In this document: in pieces, positions 13,070 through 25,709 of the stretch
Layout: each line of letters begins with the position of its first letter
How positions within the stretch are numbered: position 1 is the stretch's first letter
Assembly: GCA_035561375.1 (NCBI GenBank)
Contig: DATMXT010000237.1
Coordinates: 1 to 25,709 of the forward strand
From: Terriglobales bacterium
GTDB lineage: Bacteria > Bacillota > Clostridia > Oscillospirales > Feifaniaceae
Direction of reading: 5' to 3'
Length of the DNA: 25,709 bases
Position numbers and translations under genes: made by a program
Notes under the pieces: model-generated
What the model was told of the DNA's origin: nothing
Seen by the model: the letters and a program-made list of their open reading frames with translations, nothing else
Databases searched by the model: none

Positions 13070-15271
13070 ATGAAAAAAACACTTGCGGTCCTGCTTGCGC
13101 TGACCATGCTGCTGGGCGGCTGCGCGAGCACCGCCACGGGCGGGAAAGAGGTGTCGGGCGAATTTTCCGGCACCGCGAAGGGGTTTGGCGGCGACGTGAC
13201 CGTCACCCTCAAGCTTGAGAGCGGCAAGCTCGCCGACGTCGTCATCGAGGGCGGCGGTGAGACCGGGACGGTCGGCGGCCGCGCCATGGAGCTGATGGCG
13301 GCCGGCATGAAGTCCGGCAACACGGTCGAGGTCGACAAGATTTCAGGCGCGACCATTACGAGTGACGCCGTGCTTGCGGCTGCCGCCGACGCGCTTTCGG
13401 CCAGCGGCGCCACCCTCACTCCCGATGAGACAACCGTCACGCAGGCCATGACTCCCGGAACCTACTATGGCGAAGAGTACGGCAAATGGAAAGCCGGCAC
13501 CATTGAGGGCGAGCGCTTTGGCTCCCCCGCCGTCATCGGGCCCACCAGGGTCGCCGTCACGGTCGATGAGACTTCCATCCTCAAAGTCGAAGTGCTCTCC
13601 TGCGACGACACGCCCGGCTTTATTGAGCCCTGCACCCTGCGCATTCCGGCCGCCGTGGTCGGGCAGCAGTCGATCGCCGTCGACAGCGTCACCGGCTGCA
13701 CCCTGACAAGTCAGGCAATTCTCTCCGGCGTCTCCCAGGCGCTGACGCAGGCCGGCGCCAATCTGGCCGGCTTCTCCAGGGCCACCCCAAAGACCGAGGG
13801 GACCGAAACCTACGACTGCGACCTCGTCGTGGTCGGCGGCGGCGGCAGCGGCACCACAGCCGCCCTTACCGCGCAGGAGGCCGGGCTTTCGGTCGTCGTC
13901 CTCGAAAAGACCGGCAAGGTCGGCGGCGAGAGCACCTGCTCCACCGGCATGCTCACACTCGGCTCGAAGCATCTTCAGGAGCAGACGGGCACAGAGCCCA
14001 CGCCGCTCTACGAGGTTTTCAACGAGATGATGGAGTGGGCCAGCTGGCGGGCCGACGCCTCGGTCGTCATGTCCTTCCTGAAGAACAACGGCGAGACGGC
14101 CGACTTCCTGCAATCGCTGTGGAGCCAGACCGACAATCCCGGCTTCACCCGCATGGCCGCCCCCAAGAACGGCATGGACACCGGCAAGGGCGTGGCCAAG
14201 TACACGGTGCTCTATGAGGACTTCATTATTCCAAACGGCGGCAAGCTGCTGCTCGAGACGACGGCCTACGAATTGATCCAGGACGACACGGGCGCCGTGG
14301 TCGGCGTCAAGGCCCGCAGGCAGGACGGCACCGAGGTTACTGTCAACGCCAAGGCGACGCTGCTCTCGACCGGCGGTTTTGGCGGCAACCCCGAAATGCT
14401 GAGGCAGTACCTGCACAACGACAACTTCTATCTCTACGGCCTCTCGACCAACACCGGCGACGGCCTGCGCATGGCCCTGACGGCAGGCGCCGCGCTGACC
14501 AATGAGATTGCGCCGCACCTCGCCGAATTTTGCTCCAACCCCGTCGTCGACTTCTACGCCGGCTACATGAAGTTCATCAACTACACGGGGCTCTTGCAGC
14601 TCGGCCCGAACGGAACCCGCTTCTACAACGAGGAGATGGGCGCCTCCGACCCGCTCGCCAAGGGCGCCTCGGCCCTCTACACCGTCGGCTACGCCTACGC
14701 CGTCTTTACTGGGGCCGACCTCGACAAGCTCGAAGCCGAGGGCTGCCCCGGACTGCTGTCCGAGCAGACCCGCAGCGAGATGAACAACTACCGCCCCCGC
14801 GCCTGCGTGCCCTTCTACACCATCAAGGACGAGATGCAGGCCGCCATCGACGCCGGCGAGGGCTGGAAGGCCGACTCGCTTGAAGAACTCGGCGCGATGA
14901 TCGGCTTTGACCCCGCGGTCTACGGGCCCGCCATAGAGGAGTATCTCGCCATGGCGGAGGCCGGCGAGGACACCCTCTTTGGCAAGCGGGCCGACATGCT
15001 CTATTCGCTCTCTGAGGGCCCCTACTATGCCGTCCGCATCTGCCCGGCCCTCGACGGCACCCTGAACGGCGTCAAGGTCAACGCCAACATGCAGGCCGTC
15101 GACGAGGACTACACCCCCATCCCCGGCCTCTACATGGGCGGCTACGACGCCGGCGGCCTCTGGGCCTTCCCCTACTACCAGACCGAGCACACCAACGCCC
15201 TCACGCAGGGCTATTCCGTCACCTCGGGCCGCATCGCGGCAAAGCACATCGCCGCGACACTCGGAAAATAG
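13070..15271 (+). CDS. Lipoprotein flavin reductase: two FMN-binding domains + FAD_binding_2 (flavocytochrome c/fumarate-reductase superfamily)
   Basis: ATG 13070 with AGGAGG RBS. Lipobox LLGGC. Flavinylation motifs SGAT and TGCT. VVGGGGSG Rossmann, LSTGGFGGN, NTGDG, GLYMGG. Confidence 0.9.
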   Translation: MKKTLAVLLALTMLLGGCASTATGGKEVSGEFSGTAKGFGGDVTVTLKLESGKLADVVIEGGGETGTVGGRAMELMAAGMKSGNTVEVDKISGATITSDAVLAAAADALSASGATLTPDETTVTQAMTPGTYYGEEYGKWKAGTIEGERFGSPAVIGPTRVAVTVDETSILKVEVLSCDDTPGFIEPCTLRIPAAVVGQQSIAVDSVTGCTLTSQAILSGVSQALTQAGANLAGFSRATPKTEGTETYDCDLVVVGGGGSGTTAALTAQEAGLSVVVLEKTGKVGGESTCSTGMLTLGSKHLQEQTGTEPTPLYEVFNEMMEWASWRADASVVMSFLKNNGETADFLQSLWSQTDNPGFTRMAAPKNGMDTGKGVAKYTVLYEDFIIPNGGKLLLETTAYELIQDDTGAVVGVKARRQDGTEVTVNAKATLLSTGGFGGNPEMLRQYLHNDNFYLYGLSTNTGDGLRMALTAGAALTNEIAPHLAEFCSNPVVDFYAGYMKFINYTGLLQLGPNGTRFYNEEMGASDPLAKGASALYTVGYAYAVFTGADLDKLEAEGCPGLLSEQTRSEMNNYRPRACVPFYTIKDEMQAAIDAGEGWKADSLEELGAMIGFDPAVYGPAIEEYLAMAEAGEDTLFGKRADMLYSLSEGPYYAVRICPALDGTLNGVKVNANMQAVDEDYTPIPGLYMGGYDAGGLWAFPYYQTEHTNALTQGYSVTSGRIAAKHIAATLGK

Positions 15272-15287
15272 GGTTTCCTCCCGATGA

Positions 15288-15317
15288 TAAAGGCCCGGGC
15301 GTTTGCCCGGGCCTTTA
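15288..15317. terminator. Bidirectional terminator
   Basis: taaaggcccgggc-gttt-gcccgggccttta between convergent genes. Confidence 0.88.
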
Positions 15318-17120
15318 CTCTGTGCGAATGCTTCGCTTTTTGTTTGAAAGTCTGATATCGGGCGCCGGTATCTCTCTGAGCTTGGCCTCGATGCCCGCCG
15401 CCGCCAGTGCCGCCGCCAAGCGGTCAAGCCCACCCGGCGCAAAGCAGGAAATGATCAGCTCACCCGTGTTAACCGCCGCGTCGAAGTACAAAAGCGCCTC
15501 AATATCGCCGAGCGCTTCGTCAAGGGCGGCCATGCCGAGCGAATCCCCGCCGAGCCTGCCCTCGACCCTGCCAAGTCGCGGAAAGGAGCCGCCGCAGGCA
15601 CAGGGAGGGATAATGAGCCGGGCGATATCGCCGGTGCGGTAGCGGATGAGGGGCATGGCTCTGTCACGCAGCGAGGTCAGCACGACCTCGCCCGCCTCCC
15701 CGTCCGGTATGGGCAGCAGGGTTTTGGGCTCGATAATTTCAACGAAAAATTCGTCGTCCCGCAAGTGCATGCCGTCCCGGCAGCGGCAGTCGACGGCAAA
15801 ACCAAAGCCGGTCTCGGTCATGCCGTAGTGGGCGTAGACCGTGCACCCCCAGACCCGCTCGATGAGCCTGACAAAGCTCTTTGGGATATAGTCGGCGCTG
15901 AGCAGCACCGCCCGTGGAGAGAGCTCCGGGGCCGCAAGGCAGAGAGTGCGGGCAAAGCCCGGCTGGGCTATGATGCAGGCGGCCCCCCGCGCCGCCTCTA
16001 TTGCCTCGTTTATGTCGTCAAAGTCCCACAGCGACCGGCAGGATACGCCGAGCTTTTCAAGCCCCCGCCGCAGGAGGTCCGCGATTGAATCGGGGCCGTC
16101 CCGCATGAAGACGCAGACCGTCTCGCCCTCTGACACCAGCCCCGACATGCCGGCGGCGAAAAAGTCCACGGTCGCCTCGAGGTCGGCCTGCGACAGGAAG
16201 ACGCGTTTGCCGAGCCTCGTGCCCGAGGTTTGCAGCGTGACGACGCGGGGAATTTCGGCAGGGGAAACGGCAAGAAAGCCCTGCGGGTCGGCCGCAAGGT
16301 CTGCCGCAGTTGTAAAGGGAAGACGGCTCCACACGGCGGGAGTCGGCAAAATATCACGCCCGGCGAGGGATGTGCCGTAGTATTTGCCGCACTTTCGCGC
16401 ACGGAGGGCCGACTTCACTGCGAGAGCGAGCTGTGTCTCTCTGTTCGCTCCCAAATGGGTGGCCGCGGCGGTATAGACGGGTGAAATATCGGCCCTCTTT
16501 TTTGCAACAAGGAGGTAATAACCTGCAACAGCCCGTTTCATGAGGGCCATATCGGCCCCGTAAAAGGCGCACCCCCCGCCCGCATCTTCAAAAATGAGCC
16601 GGGCGTAGTATTCGCGAAGGGCCGGCGTGTGGTCCTCGAAGAGGACGATTTCAAGGCCGGCGGCCGCGATGCGGGTCTCAACCGTCTCCCGCTCCCGCAG
16701 GTGCAGCCCGCCCGTTTCAAGCCCCTCTTTTTTGGCGTAGAGGTCGGTGAGCACGAGGCTGCCGCCCCGCCGCAGCAGCCGCGCCGCCTCCATGACGGCC
16801 TTCCCGGCGTCCGGCAGGAGGGAGAGTACGCACTCGGCCAAAATCCCGTCGGCGTACTCGTCCCCGAAGGGCAGGGCGCAGGCGTCCCCTATGACAAAGC
16901 GGGCAGTCGGGTGGGCTGCCGTCGCGGCCGACACCGCATCTGCGTCCACATCAACCCCGACGGCGTCGTATCCGAGCTCCGACAAGAGCCCGGCCGTGGC
17001 GCCGGCTCCGCAGCCGACGTCGACAATGCGGCCTCCGGGGCGGATATCGGCCGCCGCAAGCCCCCTTTGGGTGAGCGTCAGTCCGCCCGGGCGGCGGATG
17101 CAGGGCGTGCGGTCAGCCAT
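15315..17120 (-). CDS. Fusion of class I SAM methyltransferase (DVU_1556-like) and PaaK-like AMP-dependent CoA ligase (DVU_1553-like)
   Basis: N-half: RPGGLTLT, VDVGCGAG, AECVLS, GYYLLVAKK. C-half: LPFT, TSGT, LLSAD, HYGMTE, YRTGD, GR. One uninterrupted frame. Start is ATG 17120 or 17129. Confidence 0.8.
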   Translation of the reverse strand: MADRTPCIRRPGGLTLTQRGLAAADIRPGGRIVDVGCGAGATAGLLSELGYDAVGVDVDADAVSAATAAHPTARFVIGDACALPFGDEYADGILAECVLSLLPDAGKAVMEAARLLRRGGSLVLTDLYAKKEGLETGGLHLRERETVETRIAAAGLEIVLFEDHTPALREYYARLIFEDAGGGCAFYGADMALMKRAVAGYYLLVAKKRADISPVYTAAATHLGANRETQLALAVKSALRARKCGKYYGTSLAGRDILPTPAVWSRLPFTTAADLAADPQGFLAVSPAEIPRVVTLQTSGTRLGKRVFLSQADLEATVDFFAAGMSGLVSEGETVCVFMRDGPDSIADLLRRGLEKLGVSCRSLWDFDDINEAIEAARGAACIIAQPGFARTLCLAAPELSPRAVLLSADYIPKSFVRLIERVWGCTVYAHYGMTETGFGFAVDCRCRDGMHLRDDEFFVEIIEPKTLLPIPDGEAGEVVLTSLRDRAMPLIRYRTGDIARLIIPPCACGGSFPRLGRVEGRLGGDSLGMAALDEALGDIEALLYFDAAVNTGELIISCFAPGGLDRLAAALAAAGIEAKLREIPAPDIRLSNKKRSIRTE

Positions 17121-18471
17121 TGCCGCCACCGATGTAGTAGGCGCAAAACGGCACCAGCCGCTCCCCGTCGCAGACGTGCAGGCTGCACCGGCGAAGCCGC
17201 TCGAGGTCGAGGTTCCACCGGTCCTGAAAGGCCATGGCCGTCACTGTAAAGCCGTGGGACTTGATACGGTCGGCAAACTCGTCGAGGCCCATGGACCCCT
17301 CTGTTTCCCCTGTTTCACCGCATGTACAGGGTTCCCCGCCGCCGGAGCGGGGCTGCAGCGCCTCGTCGCGCCGAAGCCACCGGCGGGCGACAAACTCGCG
17401 GTTTTGCTCGGCCGTCGCCACCCCGCAGCAGCAGTCCGCCTGCCCCCGGTGGAGCGGGTAGAGCGTGCCATCCTCCCGCACGATGTAGTCGCCGTGAAAG
17501 CCGCAGAGCGGATGGTCGCACCGCGAGGGCAGCAGCGTGTCTCGGGGCACCAGCCCATAGCTCTGCTCATAGACCGCGTCGATGAGCGCATCAAGCGTGA
17601 AGCGGTCGGCGTCGTCTGGAACTTTGGGCGCGCGGCCGAAGTAGCTGACCGGCTGGAAGTGCACGCCGCGCACCGCGGGCGAGCGGTTTGCGGCGAACCG
17701 CAGGATGTCGCCGATGTTATCGGTGTTGACGCCGGGTACGAGCATGGGCACCAGCGTCACTCCGATATGATATTTGTCGCAGAGCTCAATGGCACGTTTT
17801 TTGATGTCAAAGAGCGGGCGGCCGCGCAGCGCCTCAAAAATTTTGTCTTTGGTGCCGTCAAACTGCATGAAGACAAAGGAAAGCCCGGCGGCGGCGAGGG
17901 CCTCCACATAGGCCTCGTCCTGCGCAAGCCTTATGCCGTTTGTGTTGAGCTGCACATAGCGGATGCCGGCCGCATGGGCCGCCGCCACAATTTCCGGCAG
18001 GTCGTCCCGCAGCGTCGGCTCTCCGCCCGAGAGCTGCACAAGTCCGCCGCCCTTTGACACGATGAAGGCGAGGTCTTTTTTGACGTCTTCAATGTCCCGG
18101 TCGGCGCCCTCCGCTTCCCCTTGCGCAAAGCAGAAGGGACAGCCGAGGTCGCACCGCCTGGTCACCTCGAGCAGCACACAGCAGGTGCCCTGCCGGTGCT
18201 CGGGGCAGATGCCGCAGGCGGAGGGGCAGTTCTCGTTTTCGCCCGGCTTTATTTCGGGTTCCCCGCCTCGCCACTTGACGATGTCGACTTTGCCGCTCCA
18301 AATCAGGGTGGAAAAGCCGCCGCACTCGGGGCAGGTCTTCTCTAAATAAATTTTGTCGCCCCGGCGCACATGCCGGGCCCCGATGCGCCGCATACAGGTT
18401 GGACAGATGCTGTAGGTGCGGCGCACGACTTCGGTTTTCGGGCGGGCTAAAACCCTCTTTGTCCGCTTCAC
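17113..18471 (-). CDS. trsS: Radical SAM protein, TrsS-like (Cys form)
   Basis: CxxxCxxC (CDLGCPFC), SGGEPT, NTNG. N-terminal SICPTC...CPECG, C-terminal DLERLRRC..VPFCAYY. GTG 18471 overlaps the upstream TGA. Confidence 0.8.
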   Translation of the reverse strand: MKRTKRVLARPKTEVVRRTYSICPTCMRRIGARHVRRGDKIYLEKTCPECGGFSTLIWSGKVDIVKWRGGEPEIKPGENENCPSACGICPEHRQGTCCVLLEVTRRCDLGCPFCFAQGEAEGADRDIEDVKKDLAFIVSKGGGLVQLSGGEPTLRDDLPEIVAAAHAAGIRYVQLNTNGIRLAQDEAYVEALAAAGLSFVFMQFDGTKDKIFEALRGRPLFDIKKRAIELCDKYHIGVTLVPMLVPGVNTDNIGDILRFAANRSPAVRGVHFQPVSYFGRAPKVPDDADRFTLDALIDAVYEQSYGLVPRDTLLPSRCDHPLCGFHGDYIVREDGTLYPLHRGQADCCCGVATAEQNREFVARRWLRRDEALQPRSGGGEPCTCGETGETEGSMGLDEFADRIKSHGFTVTAMAFQDRWNLDLERLRRCSLHVCDGERLVPFCAYYIGGGNG

Positions 18472-18656
18472 TTGTCCTCCAGCTCCTGTTCCACCTCGGC
18501 CATGCGCCCTCTGGCGACGTCCTCCGGGATCAGCACCTGCCCGCACTTCGGGCAGCACAAAAACGTGTGGTGGAAGACCGTCCCCATGTAGGAGAACTCC
18601 ACCTGCTTCGGAATAAGTTTCAGGTTACACAGGCCGCAGTACAGGTCACTCTCCAT
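18468..18656 (-). CDS. Small CxxC..CxxC redox/Zn-ribbon protein (DVU_1557-like)
   Basis: CGLC and CPKC pairs, C-terminal EQELEDK. Translationally coupled on both sides. Confidence 0.8.
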   Translation of the reverse strand: MESDLYCGLCNLKLIPKQVEFSYMGTVFHHTFLCCPKCGQVLIPEDVARGRMAEVEQELEDK

Positions 18657-20865
18657 GCGCTTCATCCCCCTTGATGTTCATGCGGTGGCTGTAAGCCGTG
18701 AGCACCCGGTAGCCGTCCCCCTCCGGCCGGTATTTGACCCAGTGGGTGCGGTAGCCGATGCGCAGATGCCCGGAAAAAGTCCCGTCGGCCCGGTTTTCGA
18801 TTTTTTGGCCGGTCGCCTCGCAGTGGGCGACGACTGCCGCGATATCGCTCTCCAGCATGTAGTCGGCGTCTATGGCCTTCTTGATTTCGTCCGGGATGAT
18901 GAGCTTAACAGACGGTATTTCGGGCGGCGTCTTCTCTGCGCCAAAGCGTTTTTCCATCGTGCGTCTCAGCTCCTCTCTGTTTTGCCGCCGCACCGTCCAG
19001 GTGGGCGGGGTGCGGTCCGTGGGGTTTAAGCCAAAGAGCAGGTCGAGAATGTGGACGGCCGGCTTTCCGCCTTTCGCAAAAATGTCGCGACAGTTGGTGC
19101 AGTAAGTGATGTAGGGCAGGGGCGACAGGCCGGTGCGCTCACTGACGACCGCCTTTGTCATGGCGGGGTTTGCGGTTGTCGTCTGACCGCCGTAGCTGCA
19201 GCAGGCGGCCTCACCTCCCGCCGTCTTTAGCTCCTCAAAGGGGACGCCGGATTCTTTTAACAGCGTGCGCACACGCGCCTGAAGGGCAGGCTCTCCCCGC
19301 GAGGCGCAGGGGTCAAAGAGGGCAAAGGGGCTGTCCCCAGCGGCCTTCGGCTCGAGATAGTCGTATACAAACTCCGTCTTGACCTCCGGCAGGTGCTCCG
19401 AAAAGGTCTTTTTACAGGTAGGGCAGGCCAGAATGACGGCAGGCCCCCCGAGGGCTTCCAAAGCCGCTTTCAGCGCGGCCATTTTTTTGTCCTGCAGCGC
19501 CTTGTCTCCAGACCAGACGGCCGGCACCCCGCAGCAGCCGAGCAGGATGCCGGCGTGGGGCAGTTTTTTCATGAGGGCTTCATAGGTCTTTGTGACATAC
19601 CGGGGGTCGGAGGCCCCGAGCTGGCAGCCGGGGAAAAAGAGATGGGTGCAGGCGGCGCCCTCCGGAATGCCCGCAAAGGCGGCAGGTCCCTCCGCATGGG
19701 CCATGTCCTCAAGCCAGAAGGCCGAAAACACATGCGGCATGTCCCCTTTTTGTACCATTTCGCGCCTGCTCTCGAGCAAAAAGCGCTGCATGTCGACCCC
19801 CATGGGGCAGGCCGCGGCGCACATGCCGCACTGCTCGCAGCTCGCGATGAGCCTTGTCGCAATGCGGTTTGAGAAAATGGCGCCGGGGTTTACGGTGCCG
19901 TCGACCTCGTCGACAATGCGGCGGGGGGGCTTTTTGTAGAAGGTCATGAGGTCGCACCGGCGTATGCAGGCGTCGCAGTCGCACCTCAGACACCGGGCGG
20001 CCTCAGCCGCAAGCTCCTCCCCGGTGTAAAGCTCGCCCGCAGGGACGATGGGCGGCGCGGGTTCAAGCCCTGTCGTGTCGACATAGAGCCTTGTCGGGGC
20101 GCGGGGCCGGGTGGGCTCGAATTTTCCGGTGCGCATCAGGCTGTCAATGGCGGCGGCGGCCTTGACCCCGTGGACAATGGCTTCGGTCACGCCCTGCCCC
20201 AAAAGGCCGCCGCCCAGGACCGCCCCGCGGGCCTCATCCGTGAGAATGAGTTCGCTCTCAGTTGCCCCAAGCCCGAAGTCGGGGCCGCTCGGGCCTGTCG
20301 CAATATACCAGGCGTCGGCCGGAATCTCGGCGAGGCTTTTGATTTCGCGCATGAATTCAAACGCGCAGTCCTCGCTTTGAAACTGAAGGTCGAGCTCGGC
20401 TTGAACCAGCTCCGGCGGTAGCAGGTCAAGGGCCCTGCCGCCTAAGGCGGGCCCTTTTTCATAGACCGTGACCGCGTACTTTTTCTGGCACAGCCGCAGG
20501 GCACAGGCAAGGCCCGAAAGGCCGCCGCCCACGACGGCCACCCGCTCGGACTTGCCCGACATGTTGTAGCCGCTCGGCTTTTTGGCCTTGGCCGCGGCCG
20601 TCATCGACCGCTCGATGAGGTCCATTTGCAGGGCCTGGCCGAAATTTTCCCGCGCGCACACCCTCCTGCAGGGGGCGGGGCAGAGGGCCGCCACGATGCC
20701 GGGAAAGACGACGGCGTCGCGGTAGATGCGGTAGGCGGCGTCAACCCGGCCCCGCGAAAGCCTCGCCATGAAGTCCCGCATGTCGAGCGCAAAGGGGCAG
20801 GCGGAGGTGCAAAACGGCTCCTCCCCCTGTACGCAGCCCAAAATCTCTTTTTTCATCCGTTCCAT
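18646..20865 (-). CDS. FAD / Fe-S dicluster / CCG-domain oxidoreductase
   Basis: N-terminal GltD-like CTSACP/CPAPC..C. VAVVGGGLSG. CLRCDCDAC..RC and CEQCGMC...CP. CCG motifs FPGC, CCG, CPTC, DPC, CCSYGG, CTNC. Confidence 0.85.
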   Translation of the reverse strand: MERMKKEILGCVQGEEPFCTSACPFALDMRDFMARLSRGRVDAAYRIYRDAVVFPGIVAALCPAPCRRVCARENFGQALQMDLIERSMTAAAKAKKPSGYNMSGKSERVAVVGGGLSGLACALRLCQKKYAVTVYEKGPALGGRALDLLPPELVQAELDLQFQSEDCAFEFMREIKSLAEIPADAWYIATGPSGPDFGLGATESELILTDEARGAVLGGGLLGQGVTEAIVHGVKAAAAIDSLMRTGKFEPTRPRAPTRLYVDTTGLEPAPPIVPAGELYTGEELAAEAARCLRCDCDACIRRCDLMTFYKKPPRRIVDEVDGTVNPGAIFSNRIATRLIASCEQCGMCAAACPMGVDMQRFLLESRREMVQKGDMPHVFSAFWLEDMAHAEGPAAFAGIPEGAACTHLFFPGCQLGASDPRYVTKTYEALMKKLPHAGILLGCCGVPAVWSGDKALQDKKMAALKAALEALGGPAVILACPTCKKTFSEHLPEVKTEFVYDYLEPKAAGDSPFALFDPCASRGEPALQARVRTLLKESGVPFEELKTAGGEAACCSYGGQTTTANPAMTKAVVSERTGLSPLPYITYCTNCRDIFAKGGKPAVHILDLLFGLNPTDRTPPTWTVRRQNREELRRTMEKRFGAEKTPPEIPSVKLIIPDEIKKAIDADYMLESDIAAVVAHCEATGQKIENRADGTFSGHLRIGYRTHWVKYRPEGDGYRVLTAYSHRMNIKGDEAHGE

Positions 20866-20871
20866 TTTTCC

Positions 20872-21597
20872 TTAAACGTACGCTTTCAAATATTCGGCCA
20901 CCGACCGGCTCATCTCCTTGGAGAAGTCCGAGTTGTACTTTCTCTCGCAAAAGGCGCGGCACCAGTCCTCAAAGGGCGTCCCCTCGGTCTCGTGGGCCAG
21001 CATCCCCCGCAGCTCGGGGCCCTCCATGCGGCGGTAGGCGTTTTCGTGGACGATGTGGGACAGCTCGCAGCGCTGGGGCTTTTTGCGGCCGAGCTGCTGC
21101 GCCGTCGGGTAGCCTAAAATCAGCATGGCGGCCGGAAACACGTATTCCGGCAGCTTTAAAAGTTCCCGATGTGTTTCGCAGTGCTCCATGATATCCCCGA
21201 TATAGCAGGAGCCGACGCCAAGGCTCCACGCCGCTGTCACGGCGTTTTGCGCCGCGATGCAGGCGTCACAGACCGCGAGCACAAAATCGCCCGGGCCCGG
21301 CTTTCTGGGGGCGCAGCCACCCTCGCGGTAGACGTCGTACCACTTCCCAGCGTCGGCGCAGAAGATGAGCACCAGAGGGGCCTTCGCGATAAAGGGCTGG
21401 TTGTCGCAGGTGACGGCAAGGCGGTCTTCCAGTCGCTGGTCCGTAATGTCGAGAATGGTGTAAAGCTGCTGATTGCCCGCCGTCGGCGCCTGCGCCGCGG
21501 CGAGGAGAATTTCGCGCTTTACGTCCCGCGGGATTTCCCTGTCCTCAAATATGCGCACGGATTTTCGCGTATGAAGATTTTGTATGACCTCGTTCAT
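20872..21597 (-). CDS. Nitroreductase-family FMN oxidoreductase (NfrA/NfsA-like)
   Basis: RKSVR, APTAGNQQ, QPFI..APLVLIFCAD, AAQN, LGVGSCYIG, LGYP. ATG 21597 with AAGGAG RBS. Confidence 0.9.
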   Translation of the reverse strand: MNEVIQNLHTRKSVRIFEDREIPRDVKREILLAAAQAPTAGNQQLYTILDITDQRLEDRLAVTCDNQPFIAKAPLVLIFCADAGKWYDVYREGGCAPRKPGPGDFVLAVCDACIAAQNAVTAAWSLGVGSCYIGDIMEHCETHRELLKLPEYVFPAAMLILGYPTAQQLGRKKPQRCELSHIVHENAYRRMEGPELRGMLAHETEGTPFEDWCRAFCERKYNSDFSKEMSRSVAEYLKAYV

Positions 21598-21620
21598 TAG
21601 CTCTCCTTGTTTGTTTTTGC

Positions 21621-21645
21621 AAAGGCCGGGCCCTTCGGCCCGGCC
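21621..21645 (-). terminator. GC-rich hairpin after mop (weak terminator or mRNA stabiliser)
   Basis: Minus strand ggccgggcc-gaag-ggcccggcc followed by only TTT. Confidence 0.5.
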
Positions 21646-21658
21646 CTGTTCGTATCGG

Positions 21659-24532
21659 TTATTCGGCTTGCAGCGGGCCGCCGGCGGCGCCGACCGGATT
21701 TGCCACGATGTTGTCGATCTCGTCGTAGAAGTCGGTGCCAAAGAAGTAGGGCGCGGGGGTCAGCTCCTCGCCGCGGGCGAGGGCGTCAAGCCCGGCTTTG
21801 AGCTTGGCGGGCAGCGCCGGAATTTCGAAAATGCGCACGCCGCAGGCGTTTTTGATGGCGTTTAAGACCGCGACATGTCCGCTCGACTGGAAGAGCTCGG
21901 AGCACCCTGACGAGCCGTAGGGGGCCCTTGAGCGCGGATTCTCGAGGTAAATTAAATTAAAGTCGTCCGGGATGTCCTGAATTTGCGGGACGCCGGCGCC
22001 CGCCATGTTGGCGTGCTTTTTGACGTCGTGATAGTCCTCCGACAGGGCGTAGCCGATGGAGTGGGAGAGGCCGCCGTAGGCCTGCCCGTCGACTGAGGCC
22101 TTATTGCCGATGACGCCGACGTCGGCCACCGAGGTGTAGGCCACGACCGTCGCCTTGCCGGTGGCGACGTCGACCTCGACCTCGCTGAGGAACATGGCGT
22201 ACATATAGGTCGGAATGGGGTCGCCGACGCCGGTGTCGGGGCTGTATTCAACGAGCTCGGGGAAGTTCTGGGTGTTGGAGTACCGGCCCTCAAAGGTGGT
22301 GGGAAGTCCCTCCTTCACCATCTCGCCGTAGGTGCGGTAGCTGCCGTCCTCTTTGCGCATGGCGGCGAGCATCTCGGCCGCCACCTGCAAAATGGCGTAG
22401 CCGTTCATCATGTGGGAGCGGCTGCCGCCCGCGATGCCGCTGTCGGGCGAGAGCTTGGAGTCGTTGATGGGCTTGACGTTGATTTTTTCGGGGGTCAGCC
22501 CGAGCGGCTTTAAGGCCTCGAGCGTGAACATGACGGTGCCGACGTCGCCCCCCTGCCCGATGTCCTCCCAGGTGTTGTAGACCGTGACCGTGCCGTCCGG
22601 GTTGAGGTCGATCTTGGAGCCGGCGCTGTCGTGCTTGCCGCCGGTGCAGTTGTAGGAGCCAAACGCGACGCCGACGCCGTGCGGCTTTTCAGGGGTGCTG
22701 CGCTGCGAGGCCCGCTTTTTCATGGCCTCGTAGTAAGGCCGGGCCGTGTCCATGATCTCCTCCATCGGATACTCCCGGTAGGGATAGCTGTTGGGGGTCG
22801 TGTCGCCCGGCCGGGCGATGTTGAGGTAGCGGAACTCGAACGGGTCGATGCCGGCCTTCTCGGCCAGCATGTCCATGATGGCCTCGGAGGCCGTTGTGAT
22901 CTGCGGCGCGCCAAAACCCCGGTAGGCGACGCCGAAGTTGTGGTTGGTACTCGCCATGCGGGCCAGCCCCATGATGTTCGGGATGTTGTAGGGCCAGCCC
23001 ATGTAGCGGATGAAGCGGGTGATGAGCCCCTCGCCGCCGTCGGAATAGGCACCGTGGTCGACGGCCGTGTCGTATTCAAGCGCCGTGAGCTTGCCCTTTT
23101 CGTCGCAGGAGAGCCGGGCGTTTGTATAGCAGGCACAGCGCTTGCCGCTGAAGTGCTGGAACTCCTCCCACGACATGGAGAGCGAGACCGGTTTGCCCGT
23201 GACCTGGGCCGCGACGGCCGTCGCCGCGAATGACGGGGCCGCCGTCGACCAGCCGAAGCTGCCGCCCGTCGTATTCATGATGATGCGCACATTTTCCTTG
23301 GGCAGCCCCGCGACCTGCGCGACGGCGCCCCTGGCCGAGTAGACGGCCTGCGCCTTGCACTGGACGGTCAGCATGCCGTCGTCGTCAAAATAGGCCTGAC
23401 AGATGTCGCCCTCGAGCGAGAGGTGGGGCTCGCGGGAGGCGTAGAAGCTGCCCTGCGCCGAGTAGGCCGAGCGCTCGATGAGCTGGGGCACATCCTCGAA
23501 ATCGCCCTTGAGCACCGGCTGGCGGATGAAGACGTTGGGGGTGTCCTCGTGCACCCGCATGGCGTCCGGCATGCTGGCCTCAAGGAAGGTCAGATACTCG
23601 GGCAGCTGCTCGAGTTCAACCTCGACCGCGGCGGCGGCAGCCCTCGCGTGGGCCTTGGTGTCGGCCGCGACGAGGCCGACAATGTCGCCGTAGCGGAAAA
23701 TTTTCTCGTCGCAGAAAATCGGGTGGCTAGGGTCGACGACGGTGCTGCGCTTGTGGTTGTTGAAGGCGGGCAGCCGGTTGACCCCCTTGACGTCCTTTGC
23801 CGTGATGACCGCGACGACCCCCTCCATTTTCTCGGCCTTGGCGGTGTCGATGCCGAGAATCCGGGCGTGGTGGGCTTTCCTCGGCTGAATGATGGCGAGG
23901 TGCAGCGTGCCCTCCGGCATTTTCTGCGCGACGTCGTCGCCGTACTCGGCAAGGCCGCAGACCTTGGCGACGGCGGTGGGACGCGGCACCGGCGAGCCGT
24001 AGTAGGCGCCGTTTTCGGGGTTTTTATAGGTGATGTCGGCCATCGCGGCCTCGCCGCGGACGACTTTGGCCGCGTCCATGACGGCGTCGACCAGGGGCTT
24101 GTACCCGGTGCAGCGGCAGATGTTGCGGTGCTTTTGGAACCACTCGCGCACCTGCCTCCTTGTCGGGTTGTTATTTTGCTGCAGCAGCGCGTAGGCCGAC
24201 ACGATAAAGCCCGGCGAGCAAAAGCCGCACTGGGCCGAGCCGTGGGTGATCCAGGCCTGCTGGAGCGGGTGGAGGCAGGAGGGCGTGCCGACGCCCTCAA
24301 TCGTGACGACCTTGCTGTAGTCCTCAACCGTCTTGATGCGGCGGGTGCAGGAGCGGATGACCTCGCCGTTTAAGATGACCGAGCAGGCGCCGCAGACGCC
24401 GGTCCCGCAGCCGACCTTGACGCCGGTGAGCCCCTCGCGGCGCAGGACGTCGGCAAGCGAGTCCTTTTCGGGGTCGCAGGTGAGCATCCGGTCGGCGCCG
24501 TTGATGTTGAGCCAAAGTTTACACAGTTTCAT
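21659..24532 (-). CDS. mop: Molybdopterin-dependent aldehyde oxidoreductase (Mop-type, xanthine oxidase family, 2x[2Fe-2S], no FAD domain)
   Basis: GCGTGVCGAC..C, QCGFC..G, CRCTGY, GGSFG, YRGFGAPQ, DQAY-like DGQAYGG, catalytic Glu region GCSEL. AGGAGG RBS. Confidence 0.92.
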   Translation of the reverse strand: MKLCKLWLNINGADRMLTCDPEKDSLADVLRREGLTGVKVGCGTGVCGACSVILNGEVIRSCTRRIKTVEDYSKVVTIEGVGTPSCLHPLQQAWITHGSAQCGFCSPGFIVSAYALLQQNNNPTRRQVREWFQKHRNICRCTGYKPLVDAVMDAAKVVRGEAAMADITYKNPENGAYYGSPVPRPTAVAKVCGLAEYGDDVAQKMPEGTLHLAIIQPRKAHHARILGIDTAKAEKMEGVVAVITAKDVKGVNRLPAFNNHKRSTVVDPSHPIFCDEKIFRYGDIVGLVAADTKAHARAAAAAVEVELEQLPEYLTFLEASMPDAMRVHEDTPNVFIRQPVLKGDFEDVPQLIERSAYSAQGSFYASREPHLSLEGDICQAYFDDDGMLTVQCKAQAVYSARGAVAQVAGLPKENVRIIMNTTGGSFGWSTAAPSFAATAVAAQVTGKPVSLSMSWEEFQHFSGKRCACYTNARLSCDEKGKLTALEYDTAVDHGAYSDGGEGLITRFIRYMGWPYNIPNIMGLARMASTNHNFGVAYRGFGAPQITTASEAIMDMLAEKAGIDPFEFRYLNIARPGDTTPNSYPYREYPMEEIMDTARPYYEAMKKRASQRSTPEKPHGVGVAFGSYNCTGGKHDSAGSKIDLNPDGTVTVYNTWEDIGQGGDVGTVMFTLEALKPLGLTPEKINVKPINDSKLSPDSGIAGGSRSHMMNGYAILQVAAEMLAAMRKEDGSYRTYGEMVKEGLPTTFEGRYSNTQNFPELVEYSPDTGVGDPIPTYMYAMFLSEVEVDVATGKATVVAYTSVADVGVIGNKASVDGQAYGGLSHSIGYALSEDYHDVKKHANMAGAGVPQIQDIPDDFNLIYLENPRSRAPYGSSGCSELFQSSGHVAVLNAIKNACGVRIFEIPALPAKLKAGLDALARGEELTPAPYFFGTDFYDEIDNIVANPVGAAGGPLQAE

Positions 24533-24573
24533 TTGCTGCCTCCTGTTTGATATGCTGCCACATATTTTGTCCG

Positions 24574-24981
24574 TCAGCCTTCGGGCAGCTGCCCCGATTC
24601 GGTCAGCAGCCGCTTGGCCTCAAAATAGGTCTTTTCAATGATGGCGGGACACCGCACCGCCTTGAGAGAGGGGTCGGCTCCGATGACGTCGGCGCAGGCG
24701 ATACCGCCGTAGGCCCCTGTCATCTCGTCTTCAAACCATTCGGTGAGCCTCGGAATGAGTTCGGTTTTGGCCGTCTCCCGGTCGAAGAGATTCAGCATCA
24801 TGACGGCCCCCGTCAGCGTGCCGCAGAGCAGTCCGCTGTAAAGCCCGAGGCAGAGGCCGCCGGCGGCCTCGACAAGCCGCTCGTTTTCCTCCCCCTTGAG
24901 CCAGAGCCCCATGGCCACCAGAATCTGCGCGCAGCAGAGCTTTTGCGCTCGAAGCGCGGCGAGCATCTCTCGGTCGTCCAT
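24574..24981 (-). CDS. C-GCAxxG-C-C family protein (DVU_1555-like)
   Basis: CCAQIL, GGLCLG..SG.LCGTLTG, IAC, RCP. ATG 24981 with GGAGG RBS. Confidence 0.82.
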   Translation of the reverse strand: MDDREMLAALRAQKLCCAQILVAMGLWLKGEENERLVEAAGGLCLGLYSGLLCGTLTGAVMMLNLFDRETAKTELIPRLTEWFEDEMTGAYGGIACADVIGADPSLKAVRCPAIIEKTYFEAKRLLTESGQLPEG

Positions 24982-25031: not shown

Positions 25032-25060
25032 AGTATACCATATGGGGCATGCTCCGTCAA
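25032..25060 (-). promoter_or_regulatory. Strong sigmaA promoter of the Mop/TrsS cluster
   Basis: TTGACG, 17 bp, TG-g-TATACT, about 50 bp upstream of ATG 24981. Confidence 0.78.
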
Positions 25061-25117
25061 TGACGGGGGGTGCCCCAAAAAAGGGCGCGGGGTGCAAAAT
25101 CTTCCCCCGCGCCCCTT

Positions 25118-25391
25118 GGCGGCGGGAACCCTCCCCACACCGGTTTTGGCGGGCGCATTTCCGCCCAGACTTCGGCAAACCGCTTGCGAATACAGCAAGT
25201 ATTCGCTGCTCGGTTTTACTCGTCTGAACGAAAATCCGCTCCGCCAAAACTGCCTTGCACCTGTCGGCGAGCAATATTCGAGGGATTTTCGTCACGGCGG
25301 ACACCGCTTTGCTGACGCAAAGCACGAACAACAAGGCGAAAAGCACCGAATAGGGCCGCCGACAGGCGGTGCGGGTTCTACTCCCGCCGCC
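25118..25391 (-). mobile_element. MITE-like structured intergenic repeat, copy C (inverted relative to copy A)
   Basis: About 84% identical to copy A over 183 nt. Perfect 10-bp terminal inverted repeat ggcggcggga / tcccgccgcc. Confidence 0.72.
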
Positions 25392-25410
25392 TTAGGTAAG
25401 GTGAACTACT

Positions 25411-25709
25411 ATGTCCAAGGTATATACGTCCATTGACCAGCTCATCGGCAACACCCCGCTGCTTGAGCTGACAGGTTACGAGAAACTGCACGGCCTTGGG
25501 GCCACCATCCTGGCCAAACTCGAGTATTTCAATCCGGCCGGCAGCGTGAAGGACCGCATCGCAAAGGCCATGATCGACGACGCCGAGGAGCGGGGCATCC
25601 TGAAAAAGGGCGCGGTCATCATTGAGCCGACCAGCGGCAACACCGGCATCGGGCTGGCCGCGGTCGCTGCGGCCAGAGGATATCGCCTCATCATCACCAT
25701 GCCCGAGAC
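25411..25709 (+). CDS. cysK: Cysteine synthase A, N-terminal part (runs off the window)
   Basis: My translation: [17 protein letters not shown]...[17 protein letters not shown]...[22 protein letters not shown]. Not in the ORF track because it has no stop in the window. Confidence 0.95.

Follow-up and report, generated by a model that had tools for sequence, protein, structure and literature searches.

Among the best-studied molybdenum enzymes are the aldehyde oxidoreductases of Desulfovibrio (Mop), whose representatives from Desulfovibrio gigas and D. desulfuricans (MOP/MOD; PDB 1VLB, 1SIJ and 1DGJ) contain no flavin adenine dinucleotide (FAD) domain, and a review of the Desulfovibrio enzyme calls its flavin partner 'missing' (PMC10223205). 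In Desulfovibrio vulgaris Hildenborough, Mop is encoded in the DVU_1553-DVU_1559/TrsS neighbourhood, a cassette that has been catalogued by curators and remains experimentally untested; one of its members, the radical S-adenosylmethionine (SAM) protein TrsS, is named as a selenoprotein family from Haft & Tolstoy 2025 (PMC13188914). What is at stake is the physiological acceptor of Mop and the role of the six accompanying genes, which occur in at least ten phyla. A preliminary description of the DNA considered here had called the pathway uncharacterised, and a literature search turned up no paper testing the function of these genes. The copy that we describe lies in a stretch of 25,709 nucleotides (nt), referred to as the window (positions 1 to 25,709 of contig DATMXT010000237.1, assembly GCA_035561375.1; named Terriglobales bacterium, placed by GTDB in Bacillota, Clostridia, Oscillospirales, Feifaniaceae). 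The window holds a minus-strand operon of seven genes, which encode a Mop-type molybdenum aldehyde oxidoreductase together with its own probable electron-transfer partners and the conserved 'Trs' helper module, and it presents the cassette in a rearranged architecture.

The identity of the genes was judged against the curated NCBIfam cut-offs of seven equivalog or exception models (six cassette families), all of which were exceeded: the Cys-rich protein CGC (NF045669, 107 bits against a cut-off of 103), Mop (NF045668, 1197 against 1100), the FAD/Fe-S/CCG protein Diclust (NF045663, the model of a pyridine nucleotide-disulfide oxidoreductase/dicluster protein, 709 against 530), the zinc-ribbon protein Znr (NF045645, named DVU_1557 'redox protein', 82 against 60), TrsS (NF045646, 529 against 490), the methyltransferase MT (NF045667, 187 against 155) and the ligase Lig (NF045666, 315 against 300). 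The earlier assignment to the DVU_1553-1559 families is thereby borne out, none of the genes having fallen into an unrelated family. The same likeness to the D. vulgaris Hildenborough neighbourhood extends to the layout, with all seven models above their cut-offs in one operon that includes Mop. The gene order is Mop-Diclust-Znr-MT-CGC-TrsS-Lig in Desulfovibrio and CGC-Mop-Diclust-Znr-TrsS-MT-Lig in the window, where, in addition, MT and Lig are fused (MT~Lig), an NfsA-like flavoprotein (NTR) is inserted after Mop, TrsS is of the Cys form and no XdhC or NTP (nucleoside triphosphate) transferase gene is found in cis.

The families also occur together across genomes, as the preliminary description had expected. 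An evenly drawn sample of 399 scored genomes from the window's class (the class sample) had TrsS above its cut-off in 18 and Mop in 15, and all 15 Mop genomes also held TrsS. The three TrsS genomes without a full Mop comprise one whose Mop is a fragment at a contig end, one that is 71% complete and one apparently true exception. Neither Mop nor TrsS was present in any of the 14 sampled genomes of the window's own order, which suggests that the cassette is patchy and probably mobile. A wider scan of species-representative genomes yielded 80 loci in at least ten phyla (Bacillota, Synergistota, Acidobacteriota, Bacteroidota, Desulfobacterota, Chloroflexota, Nitrospirota, Campylobacterota and others), making 107 with the 27 loci of the class sample. 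Within 10 kb of TrsS, these 80 loci hold Znr in 63, Lig in 62, Diclust in 61, MT in 58, CGC in 56, Mop in 52 and XdhC in 44 cases, many of the misses of cassette genes being due to contig ends. In none of the 107 loci does the module adjoin tungsten enzymes or a Flx-Hdr complex. Related genomes are not independent, and these figures are counts to which no statistical test was applied.

The operon extends from 24981 to 15315 on the minus strand, with all seven genes co-oriented in the order CGC, Mop, NTR, Diclust, Znr, TrsS and MT~Lig (Table 1). It is bounded by a near-consensus promoter and a strong hairpin, in line with the earlier view of a single transcription unit running from one promoter to one terminator; a promoter scan of the region returned three promoter-like sites against 1.8 expected by chance. 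The statement that the genes mostly overlap was slightly generous, the junctions being, in gene order, gaps of 41, 61 and 6 nt followed by overlaps of 20, 4 and 8 nt, so that half of the six do overlap. The first of these overlaps is that of the Znr gene, an easily overlooked open reading frame (ORF) of 65 codons, with the end of the Diclust gene. Since the stop codon of Znr shares the letters GTGA with the start of TrsS, the GTG at 18471 was taken as the TrsS start rather than the upstream GTG of the longest ORF, while for NTR the ATG at 21597, located behind a AAGGAGAG ribosome-binding site, was taken rather than an overlapping TTG. The hairpin between Mop and NTR may act as a partial terminator or an mRNA stabiliser, in which case the Mop message could exceed that of the downstream genes. 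The hairpin at the end of the operon, AAAGGCCCGGGC-AAAC-GCCCGGGCCTTT, is GC-rich, comprises 14 pairs and overlaps the last stop codon, that of MT~Lig; read on the minus strand, the 76-nt stretch around it (15255-15330) folds with -36.8 kcal/mol (z = -5.8), and the plus-strand value is -34.3 kcal/mol (z = -3.9). An Rfam search of the region matched no family, the riboswitch for the molybdenum cofactor (Moco) included, and no other known RNA upstream.

Table 1. Features of the Mop/Trs operon in the order of transcription, with positions counted from the first letter of the window.
Feature	Position	Strand	Evidence
Sigma-70-type promoter, TTGACG-17-TATACT, extended -10 TG	25032..25060	-	10/12 consensus positions
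CGC, DVU_1555-family C-GCAxxG-C-C protein, 135 aa	24574..24981	-	NF045669, Pfam PF09719
Mop, molybdopterin aldehyde oxidoreductase, 957 aa	21659..24532	-	NF045668, alignment to 1DGJ
GC-rich hairpin after the Mop stop codon	21622..21647	-	71-nt stretch 21595-21665 folds with -25.3 kcal/mol, z = -4.2
NTR, NfsA/NfrA1-like flavin mononucleotide (FMN) flavoprotein, nitroreductase family, 241 aa	20872..21597	-	Pfam PF00881
Diclust, FAD / Fe-S / double-CCG oxidoreductase, 739 aa	18646..20865	-	NF045663
Znr, DVU_1557-family zinc-ribbon protein (DUF7479), 65 aa	18468..18665	-	NF045645
TrsS, radical SAM enzyme, 452 aa, Cys form, no in-frame TGA	17113..18471	-	NF045646
MT~Lig, DVU_1556 methyltransferase + DVU_1553 ligase fusion, 601 aa	15315..17120	-	NF045667, NF045666
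Bidirectional intrinsic-terminator-like hairpin, shared with the convergent flavoprotein gene	15287..15318	.	Folding

The oxidoreductase itself resembles the Desulfovibrio enzyme 1DGJ over its full length (E = 5.5e-275, residues 8-912), and shares with the D. gigas and D. desulfuricans proteins the domain order (Pfam order, 1DGJ alignment), in which two [2Fe-2S] domains and the Mo cofactor-binding domains lie in one chain and no FAD domain is present. The RG(F/Y)GAP arginine and the active-site Glu are conserved in this alignment, about half of the aligned positions are identical as judged by eye, and the window protein differs by a 42-residue C-terminal extension. It belongs to a divergent Mop subclade scoring 1146-1197 bits, just above the cut-off, against 1470-1637 bits in the main clade. 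Diclust, for its part, contains the Pfam domains Fer4_20, NAD_binding_8, Fer4_17 and CCG. It has a flavin fold, no obvious second nucleotide fold, four ferredoxin-type clusters and, twice, the motif CX(n)CCX(n)CXXC, which is of the heterodisulfide-reductase (HdrB/HdrD) type. This domain content points to a chain in which Mop would oxidise an aldehyde and its electrons would pass via the two [2Fe-2S] clusters to Diclust, which probably supplies the flavin domain that Mop is without. A connection of the chain to NAD(P)H may be provided in this lineage by the additional NfsA-like FMN protein.

The radical SAM enzyme of the module has a characterised relative. The N-terminal Cys layout of TrsS had been likened to that of MJ0619, and this likeness is confirmed by the Pfam zinc ribbon PF23545 (Zn_ribbon_HMPTM) and by an alignment of TrsS residues 14-316 to GDGT-MAS/Tes (MJ0619; PDB 7TOL, 7TOM) with E = 6e-69 to 7TOL. 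The pterin chemistry that was read from the likeness fell, as MJ0619 is the tetraether lipid synthase GDGT-MAS, an enzyme with a narrow hydrophobic tunnel, and its pterin methylation was not reproduced by the authors of the structure (PMC9433317). GDGT-MAS couples the terminal carbons of two lipid tails by way of a carbon–sulfur bond to an auxiliary [4Fe-4S] cluster (PMC9433317). A role of TrsS as an MJ0619-like class D radical SAM pterin methyltransferase was consequently rejected in the literature test, the founding assignment being uncorroborated and contradicted by the structure (PMC9433317).

When the TrsS family alignment was read against the ligand list of the GDGT-MAS structure (PMC9433317), all four metal sites were found to be kept. 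These are a rubredoxin-like site with the invariant C23, C26 and C47 and, in the window, a Cys at position 50; an N-terminal [4Fe-4S] cluster with the ligands C82, C86, C89 and H92; the radical SAM motif CX3CX2C (C107, C111 and C114); and a C-terminal cluster with C323, C349, C429, C443 and the labile M413, which aligns with Met439 of GDGT-MAS. At residue 50 (window 18322-18324), the Cys of the window (CPECGG) stands against a His in 14 of 15 aligned TrsS proteins and in GDGT-MAS. Other features set the two enzymes apart: Tyr459 of GDGT-MAS is replaced by Val433 in TrsS, at a position that is variable within the TrsS family; the part that forms the second lipid pocket, around TrsS residues 317-403, does not align; TrsS scores 298 bits on the Tes model NF045702, below its cut-off of 450; and its context is a soluble redox operon, unlike the lipid synthesis of GDGT-MAS. 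Because the metal sites are kept while Tyr459, the lipid pocket and the Tes cut-off are not, TrsS is probably GDGT-MAS-like at the radical step and lies outside that family. Counts of 'Tes homologues' in bacteria may therefore be counting TrsS instead. As to selenocysteine, one TrsS of the class sample (G263:C203) carried a '1 TGA' flag, which was dismissed: there is no internal stop, and the TGA is the neighbouring stop codon.

The reassignment of MJ0619 bears directly on one of two functions put forward in the preliminary description, namely that the helper genes build or modify the pterin cofactor of Mop, or otherwise mature its molybdenum site. This idea draws on the frequent presence of XdhC, MobA-like, MoeA and FdhD genes in or beside the cassette (XdhC in the 44 of 80 loci mentioned above; L063-L065 and L067 are further examples of such genes), as well as on the finding that every Mop genome of the class sample holds TrsS. 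It loses its main argument because MJ0619 is GDGT-MAS and the pterin role is uncorroborated, the narrow hydrophobic tunnel being unsuited to a pterin (PMC9433317). The solved Desulfovibrio Mop enzymes (1DGJ, 1VLB), from strains that may or may not hold the cassette, carry the ordinary molybdopterin cytosine dinucleotide (PMC10223205). The window, moreover, has lost XdhC yet kept the module, and MoaC is retained in all ten of the other TrsS genomes tested (10/10). Since these genomes keep MoaC, the helper genes are no substitute for the usual cofactor pathway, and the cassette as a replacement of Moco synthesis was rejected; a role in modifying or maturing the cofactor we regard as improbable. 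The genome of the window (a 1.83-Mb, 332-contig, 96%-complete assembly) gave no match for MoaC, MoeA/MoeA_N or SelA, despite its two Mop enzymes and a third, xanthine-dehydrogenase-like enzyme on contig C239. An assembly gap is the likely reason, a cofactor-scavenging lifestyle being the other option. A MobA-like gene is present on contig C299, bearing on the question of a cytosine-dinucleotide cofactor.

The two smallest proteins of the operon are strictly conserved. In alignment, Znr has four invariant Cys residues, and its tail, [LM]E[DEG]K directly before the stop codon, was found in 63/63 and 17/17 loci and in 120/120 database homologues, the window protein ending in ...LEDK. Its predicted model combines a confident zinc ribbon with a low-confidence C-terminal helix. 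Two described systems provide points of comparison: as with DsrC and DsrK, the flexible C-terminal tail of a small protein, here Znr, is strictly conserved and its gene lies beside that of an HdrD-type CCG protein, and as with LysW and LysX, Znr has a zinc ribbon and an acidic tail and is encoded beside an ATP-dependent ligase, a likeness of architecture only. Znr differs from DsrC and LysW in that its tail is without cysteine and ends in Lys, not in Cys-Val or Glu, and no match in sequence or fold was found; Lig, likewise, is of the ANL/PaaK type, unlike the ATP-grasp LysX. CGC also has four invariant Cys residues in alignment (C17, C53, C96 and C111), and its AlphaFold model is all-alpha with a predicted local distance difference test score (pLDDT) of 96. 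No solved structural relative of CGC was found, fold searches with the Znr and CGC models were uninformative, and Atlas look-ups returned only the proteins' own families.

The fused enzyme MT~Lig comprises a methyltransferase part (residues ~9-207) and a ligase part (residues ~227-601). The ligase keeps the YGMTE, RYRTGD and GR motifs and the C-terminal Lys; it scores 83.6 bits on the PaaK equivalog TIGR02155, whose cut-off is 646, and has the adenylation motifs with a P-loop that is one residue short. The best NCBIfam matches of the methyltransferase outside its own family are ArsM-type models, the score on PRK11873 reaching 47 bits against a cut-off of 263, below the level of ArsM identity. 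In relatives of the same clade, the methyltransferase and ligase genes abut or overlap, and the junction in the window (AKKE*/MISPV becoming AKKRADISPV) corresponds to two abutting genes read through after disappearance of the stop codon. The fusion is not an assembly artefact; about 30 of the best 120 database relatives are likewise fused, as proteins of 550-670 aa with 33-90% identity. In all five neighbourhoods opened (5/5), the fusion adjoins Mop, Diclust, Znr and TrsS, once with a transposase between. In the TrsS tree, a Spirochaetia locus with such a fusion branches elsewhere, an indication that fusion took place at least twice.

The ligase is central to the other function proposed earlier, in which an acid formed by Mop from an aldehyde is activated to a coenzyme A (CoA) ester by the PaaK-like ligase and tailored by the methyltransferase and TrsS, and the electrons exit via the Fe-S/CCG protein. 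The ligase is indeed a full-length PaaK-type adenylating enzyme, its fusion to the methyltransferase implies one shared substrate, a family III CoA transferase gene lies just upstream in close relatives, and a Mop set of Clostridium ljungdahlii is up-regulated when acids and aldehydes interconvert (PMC5640608). Against these points, the 107 loci examined show no transporter, beta-oxidation or other catabolic gene accompanying the set. Such a route also has no place for the very small, strictly conserved Cys-rich proteins or for the lysine tail that never varies, and sets of Mop, Diclust, Znr and TrsS exist without ligase and methyltransferase. We therefore hold a pathway of this kind to be unlikely.

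We tentatively favour an arrangement, itself far from assured, in which the FAD/Fe-S/CCG protein is the electron outlet of Mop and the helper enzymes act on or through Znr. Of this arrangement it is the anatomy that is observed, and each chemical step is one that we infer from it. TrsS, the methyltransferase, the adenylating ligase and CGC might tailor neither the product of Mop nor its pterin and could instead act on, or through, Znr with its flexible tail and constant ...EDK end. An activated acid might be attached to this tail by the ligase; TrsS, by analogy with GDGT-MAS, could abstract a hydrogen from an unactivated carbon and form a carbon–sulfur bond via its C-terminal auxiliary cluster; the methyltransferase might cap the product; and CGC could supply sulfur or rebuild the cluster. 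The resulting protein-bound thiol or disulfide group might then be the substrate of the heterodisulfide-reductase-type CCG site of Diclust. The proposal follows from the invariant tail of Znr and from its position beside a CCG protein, as for DsrC/DsrK, and beside an ATP-dependent ligase, as for LysW/LysX. It is also consistent with the methyltransferase and ligase genes, which abut in relatives and are fused both here and, on the separate TrsS branch, in the Spirochaetia locus. A more specific version, to which we give an outside chance, is that the Trs module builds a protein-bound redox group, a lipoyl-like organosulfur or organometallic arm, on the C-terminal lysine of a 60-aa zinc-ribbon carrier by means of the carbon–sulfur(cluster) chemistry of a tetraether-synthase relative. 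This group would be the natural electron acceptor through which a heterodisulfide-reductase-type CCG site couples to the very-low-potential oxidation of aldehydes.

Several observations weigh against Znr as a carrier. Its tail could be a docking helix only, and neither a profile search of solved structures nor Foldseek linked Znr to LysW or another known carrier. PaaK-type enzymes normally yield CoA thioesters, not lysine amides. The P-loop of the window ligase (16224-16250), TSGTRLGKR, is one residue shorter than the TSGSSGRPKR of unfused relatives, a feature common to the fused clade (P0010, P0012) and not shared by the Spirochaetia fusion. In three loci (L070, L074 and L075), Mop, Diclust, Znr and TrsS occur with none of ligase, methyltransferase and CGC in cis, and a second cassette set in the genome of the window is without the methyltransferase and CGC that its nearest relatives have. 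Finally, the fusions and neighbours of TrsS point to metal-binding partners instead.

These last observations lead to a different reading, in which a metal, a metalloid or an Fe-S cluster, held by CGC and Znr, would be the substrate of TrsS and of the ArsM-related methyltransferase, and the Mop/Diclust complex would receive an alkylated or otherwise modified metal centre or a cluster of unusual type. Its logic is comparable to that of NifB with NifX, or of the Hcg enzymes in the case of the [Fe]-hydrogenase cofactor. A fusion of TrsS to DUF5714, a Cys-rich domain with 964 relatives, is seen (L085:10004-12181; P0250, 652 bits on NF045646), and the two are adjacent in L053 (8515-9237). On NF045648, 'metal-binding double selenoprotein MbdU', the DUF5714 part reaches 123-159 bits. 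DUF5714 is also found fused to ArsM-like methyltransferases, either alone or in combination with a SPASM-type radical SAM enzyme (P0286, P0283, P0272), and the proteins that unite DUF5714, this enzyme and the methyltransferase measure ~1000-1080 aa. Arrays of an ArsR regulator, a 362-aa CobW-type GTPase and TrsS occur in two lineages, represented by one Clostridia genome and one Pelotomaculum metagenome-assembled genome (MAG) (L047:7730-10703 and L073:164-3088), and a NifX-like Nitro_FeMo-Co protein adjoins TrsS in L043. Together with the ArsM-type best matches of the methyltransferase, these neighbours, which belong to TrsS copies located outside the cassette, point to metal, metalloid or cluster chemistry, and the four invariant Cys residues in each of CGC and Znr speak in the same direction.

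The links are looser on closer comparison. The notion that DUF5714 represents a fusion of Znr and CGC was abandoned, as homology is unsupported: hhalign gave a probability of 4.7% for DUF5714 against CGC and of 56% against Znr, the latter reflecting a generic likeness of the zinc-ribbon part. Five tested genomes have TrsS apart from a full cassette (alone in three), and four of the five hold a ligase above cut-off and four hold Znr elsewhere. An independent function of 'stand-alone' TrsS is weakened by this retention of ligase and Znr, and TrsS may serve the cassette in trans. In addition, no ars, metal-transport or metal-sensor gene occurs in this operon, the ArsM similarity of the methyltransferase is weak, as its score indicates, and both the ligase and the lysine tail are left unexplained. 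Chemistry on a metal or cluster appears to us nearly as likely as the carrier function of Znr, and no less a matter of doubt.

A separate array touches on acyl-lysine chemistry. In a Pelobacter MAG (L127:2635-6708), an OsmC-like protein, a 292-aa radical SAM protein, a LplA/LipB-like lipoate-protein ligase, a double zinc ribbon and TrsS are tightly arrayed; this hint is suggestive and comes from a single locus.

Several features distinguish the window copy from its relatives. In the TrsS tree, it falls in a clade of 28 rows (SH-aLRT 99) whose gene order is CGC-Mop-Diclust-Znr-TrsS-MT-Lig. The preliminary label of a compact clostridial variant fits as regards compactness, given the gene fusion and the lost XdhC, and as regards clostridial affiliation at the level of the class. 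Of the maturation genes, neither an XdhC-type factor nor a DVU_1551-type NTP transferase was found in the window. In the three closest loci (L063-L065), XdhC lies between CGC and Mop, where the window has the 41-nt gap, and the XdhC paralogues of the genome, on contigs C299 and C42, are only 31-34% identical. XdhC has thus been lost from this copy. NTR, conversely, is an addition restricted to the window's lineage: it is present in the same three loci, whose Mop proteins are 91% identical to that of the window, and absent from the 80 loci of the wider scan and from all class-sample loci. With 112.6 bits on NF008033 (cut-off 223), NTR stays below the NfsA equivalog level, and it passes the Pfam Nitroreductase threshold (72 against 23.5 bits); its nearest solved proteins are NfrA1, NfsA and Frp.

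The genome contains a second cassette (loci L062 and L061). A second Mop gene lies on contig C299 (1-6690) with XdhC and a MobA-like/LysR fusion gene, and a second Diclust-Znr-TrsS-Lig set lies on contig C4 (1-5139). The proteins of the second set are 31-46% identical to those of the window, and the set clusters with Oscillospiraceae-type cassettes. A 140-codon ORF preceding the second Mop (C299 3304-3726) was considered as a divergent CGC and rejected, having no Pfam match and no Cys pattern. Clostridium ljungdahlii similarly has two tandem Mop sets, one of which is up-regulated on syngas or H2/CO2 (PMC5640608). Two full Mop/Diclust/Znr/TrsS/Lig sets in one genome are easier to reconcile with protein contacts specific to each partner than with a single diffusible product. 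This copy is of value for its comparative clues, namely the fusion, the pair of paralogous sets, the added flavoprotein and the loss of XdhC, and for the correction of the MJ0619 argument. Four features, the fused methyltransferase and ligase, the additional flavoprotein, the paralogous second set and the lysine tail that does not vary, narrow future experiments to one small protein, Znr.

The surroundings of the operon vary as well. In relatives of the clade with the same gene order, a gene for a Ppnp-type pyrimidine/purine nucleoside phosphorylase (~103-110 aa) is located 3' of the ligase (L049:7090-7401, with equivalents in L050, L052, L054 and L055), and the window is without it. On the other side, synteny with the close relatives ends just upstream of the promoter (25062-25411). 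The family III CoA transferase gene that occupies this site in the relatives is found in this genome on contig C150, and in the window the promoter is preceded by one of the repeat elements of ~275 bp and then by a cysteine synthase gene on the opposite strand.

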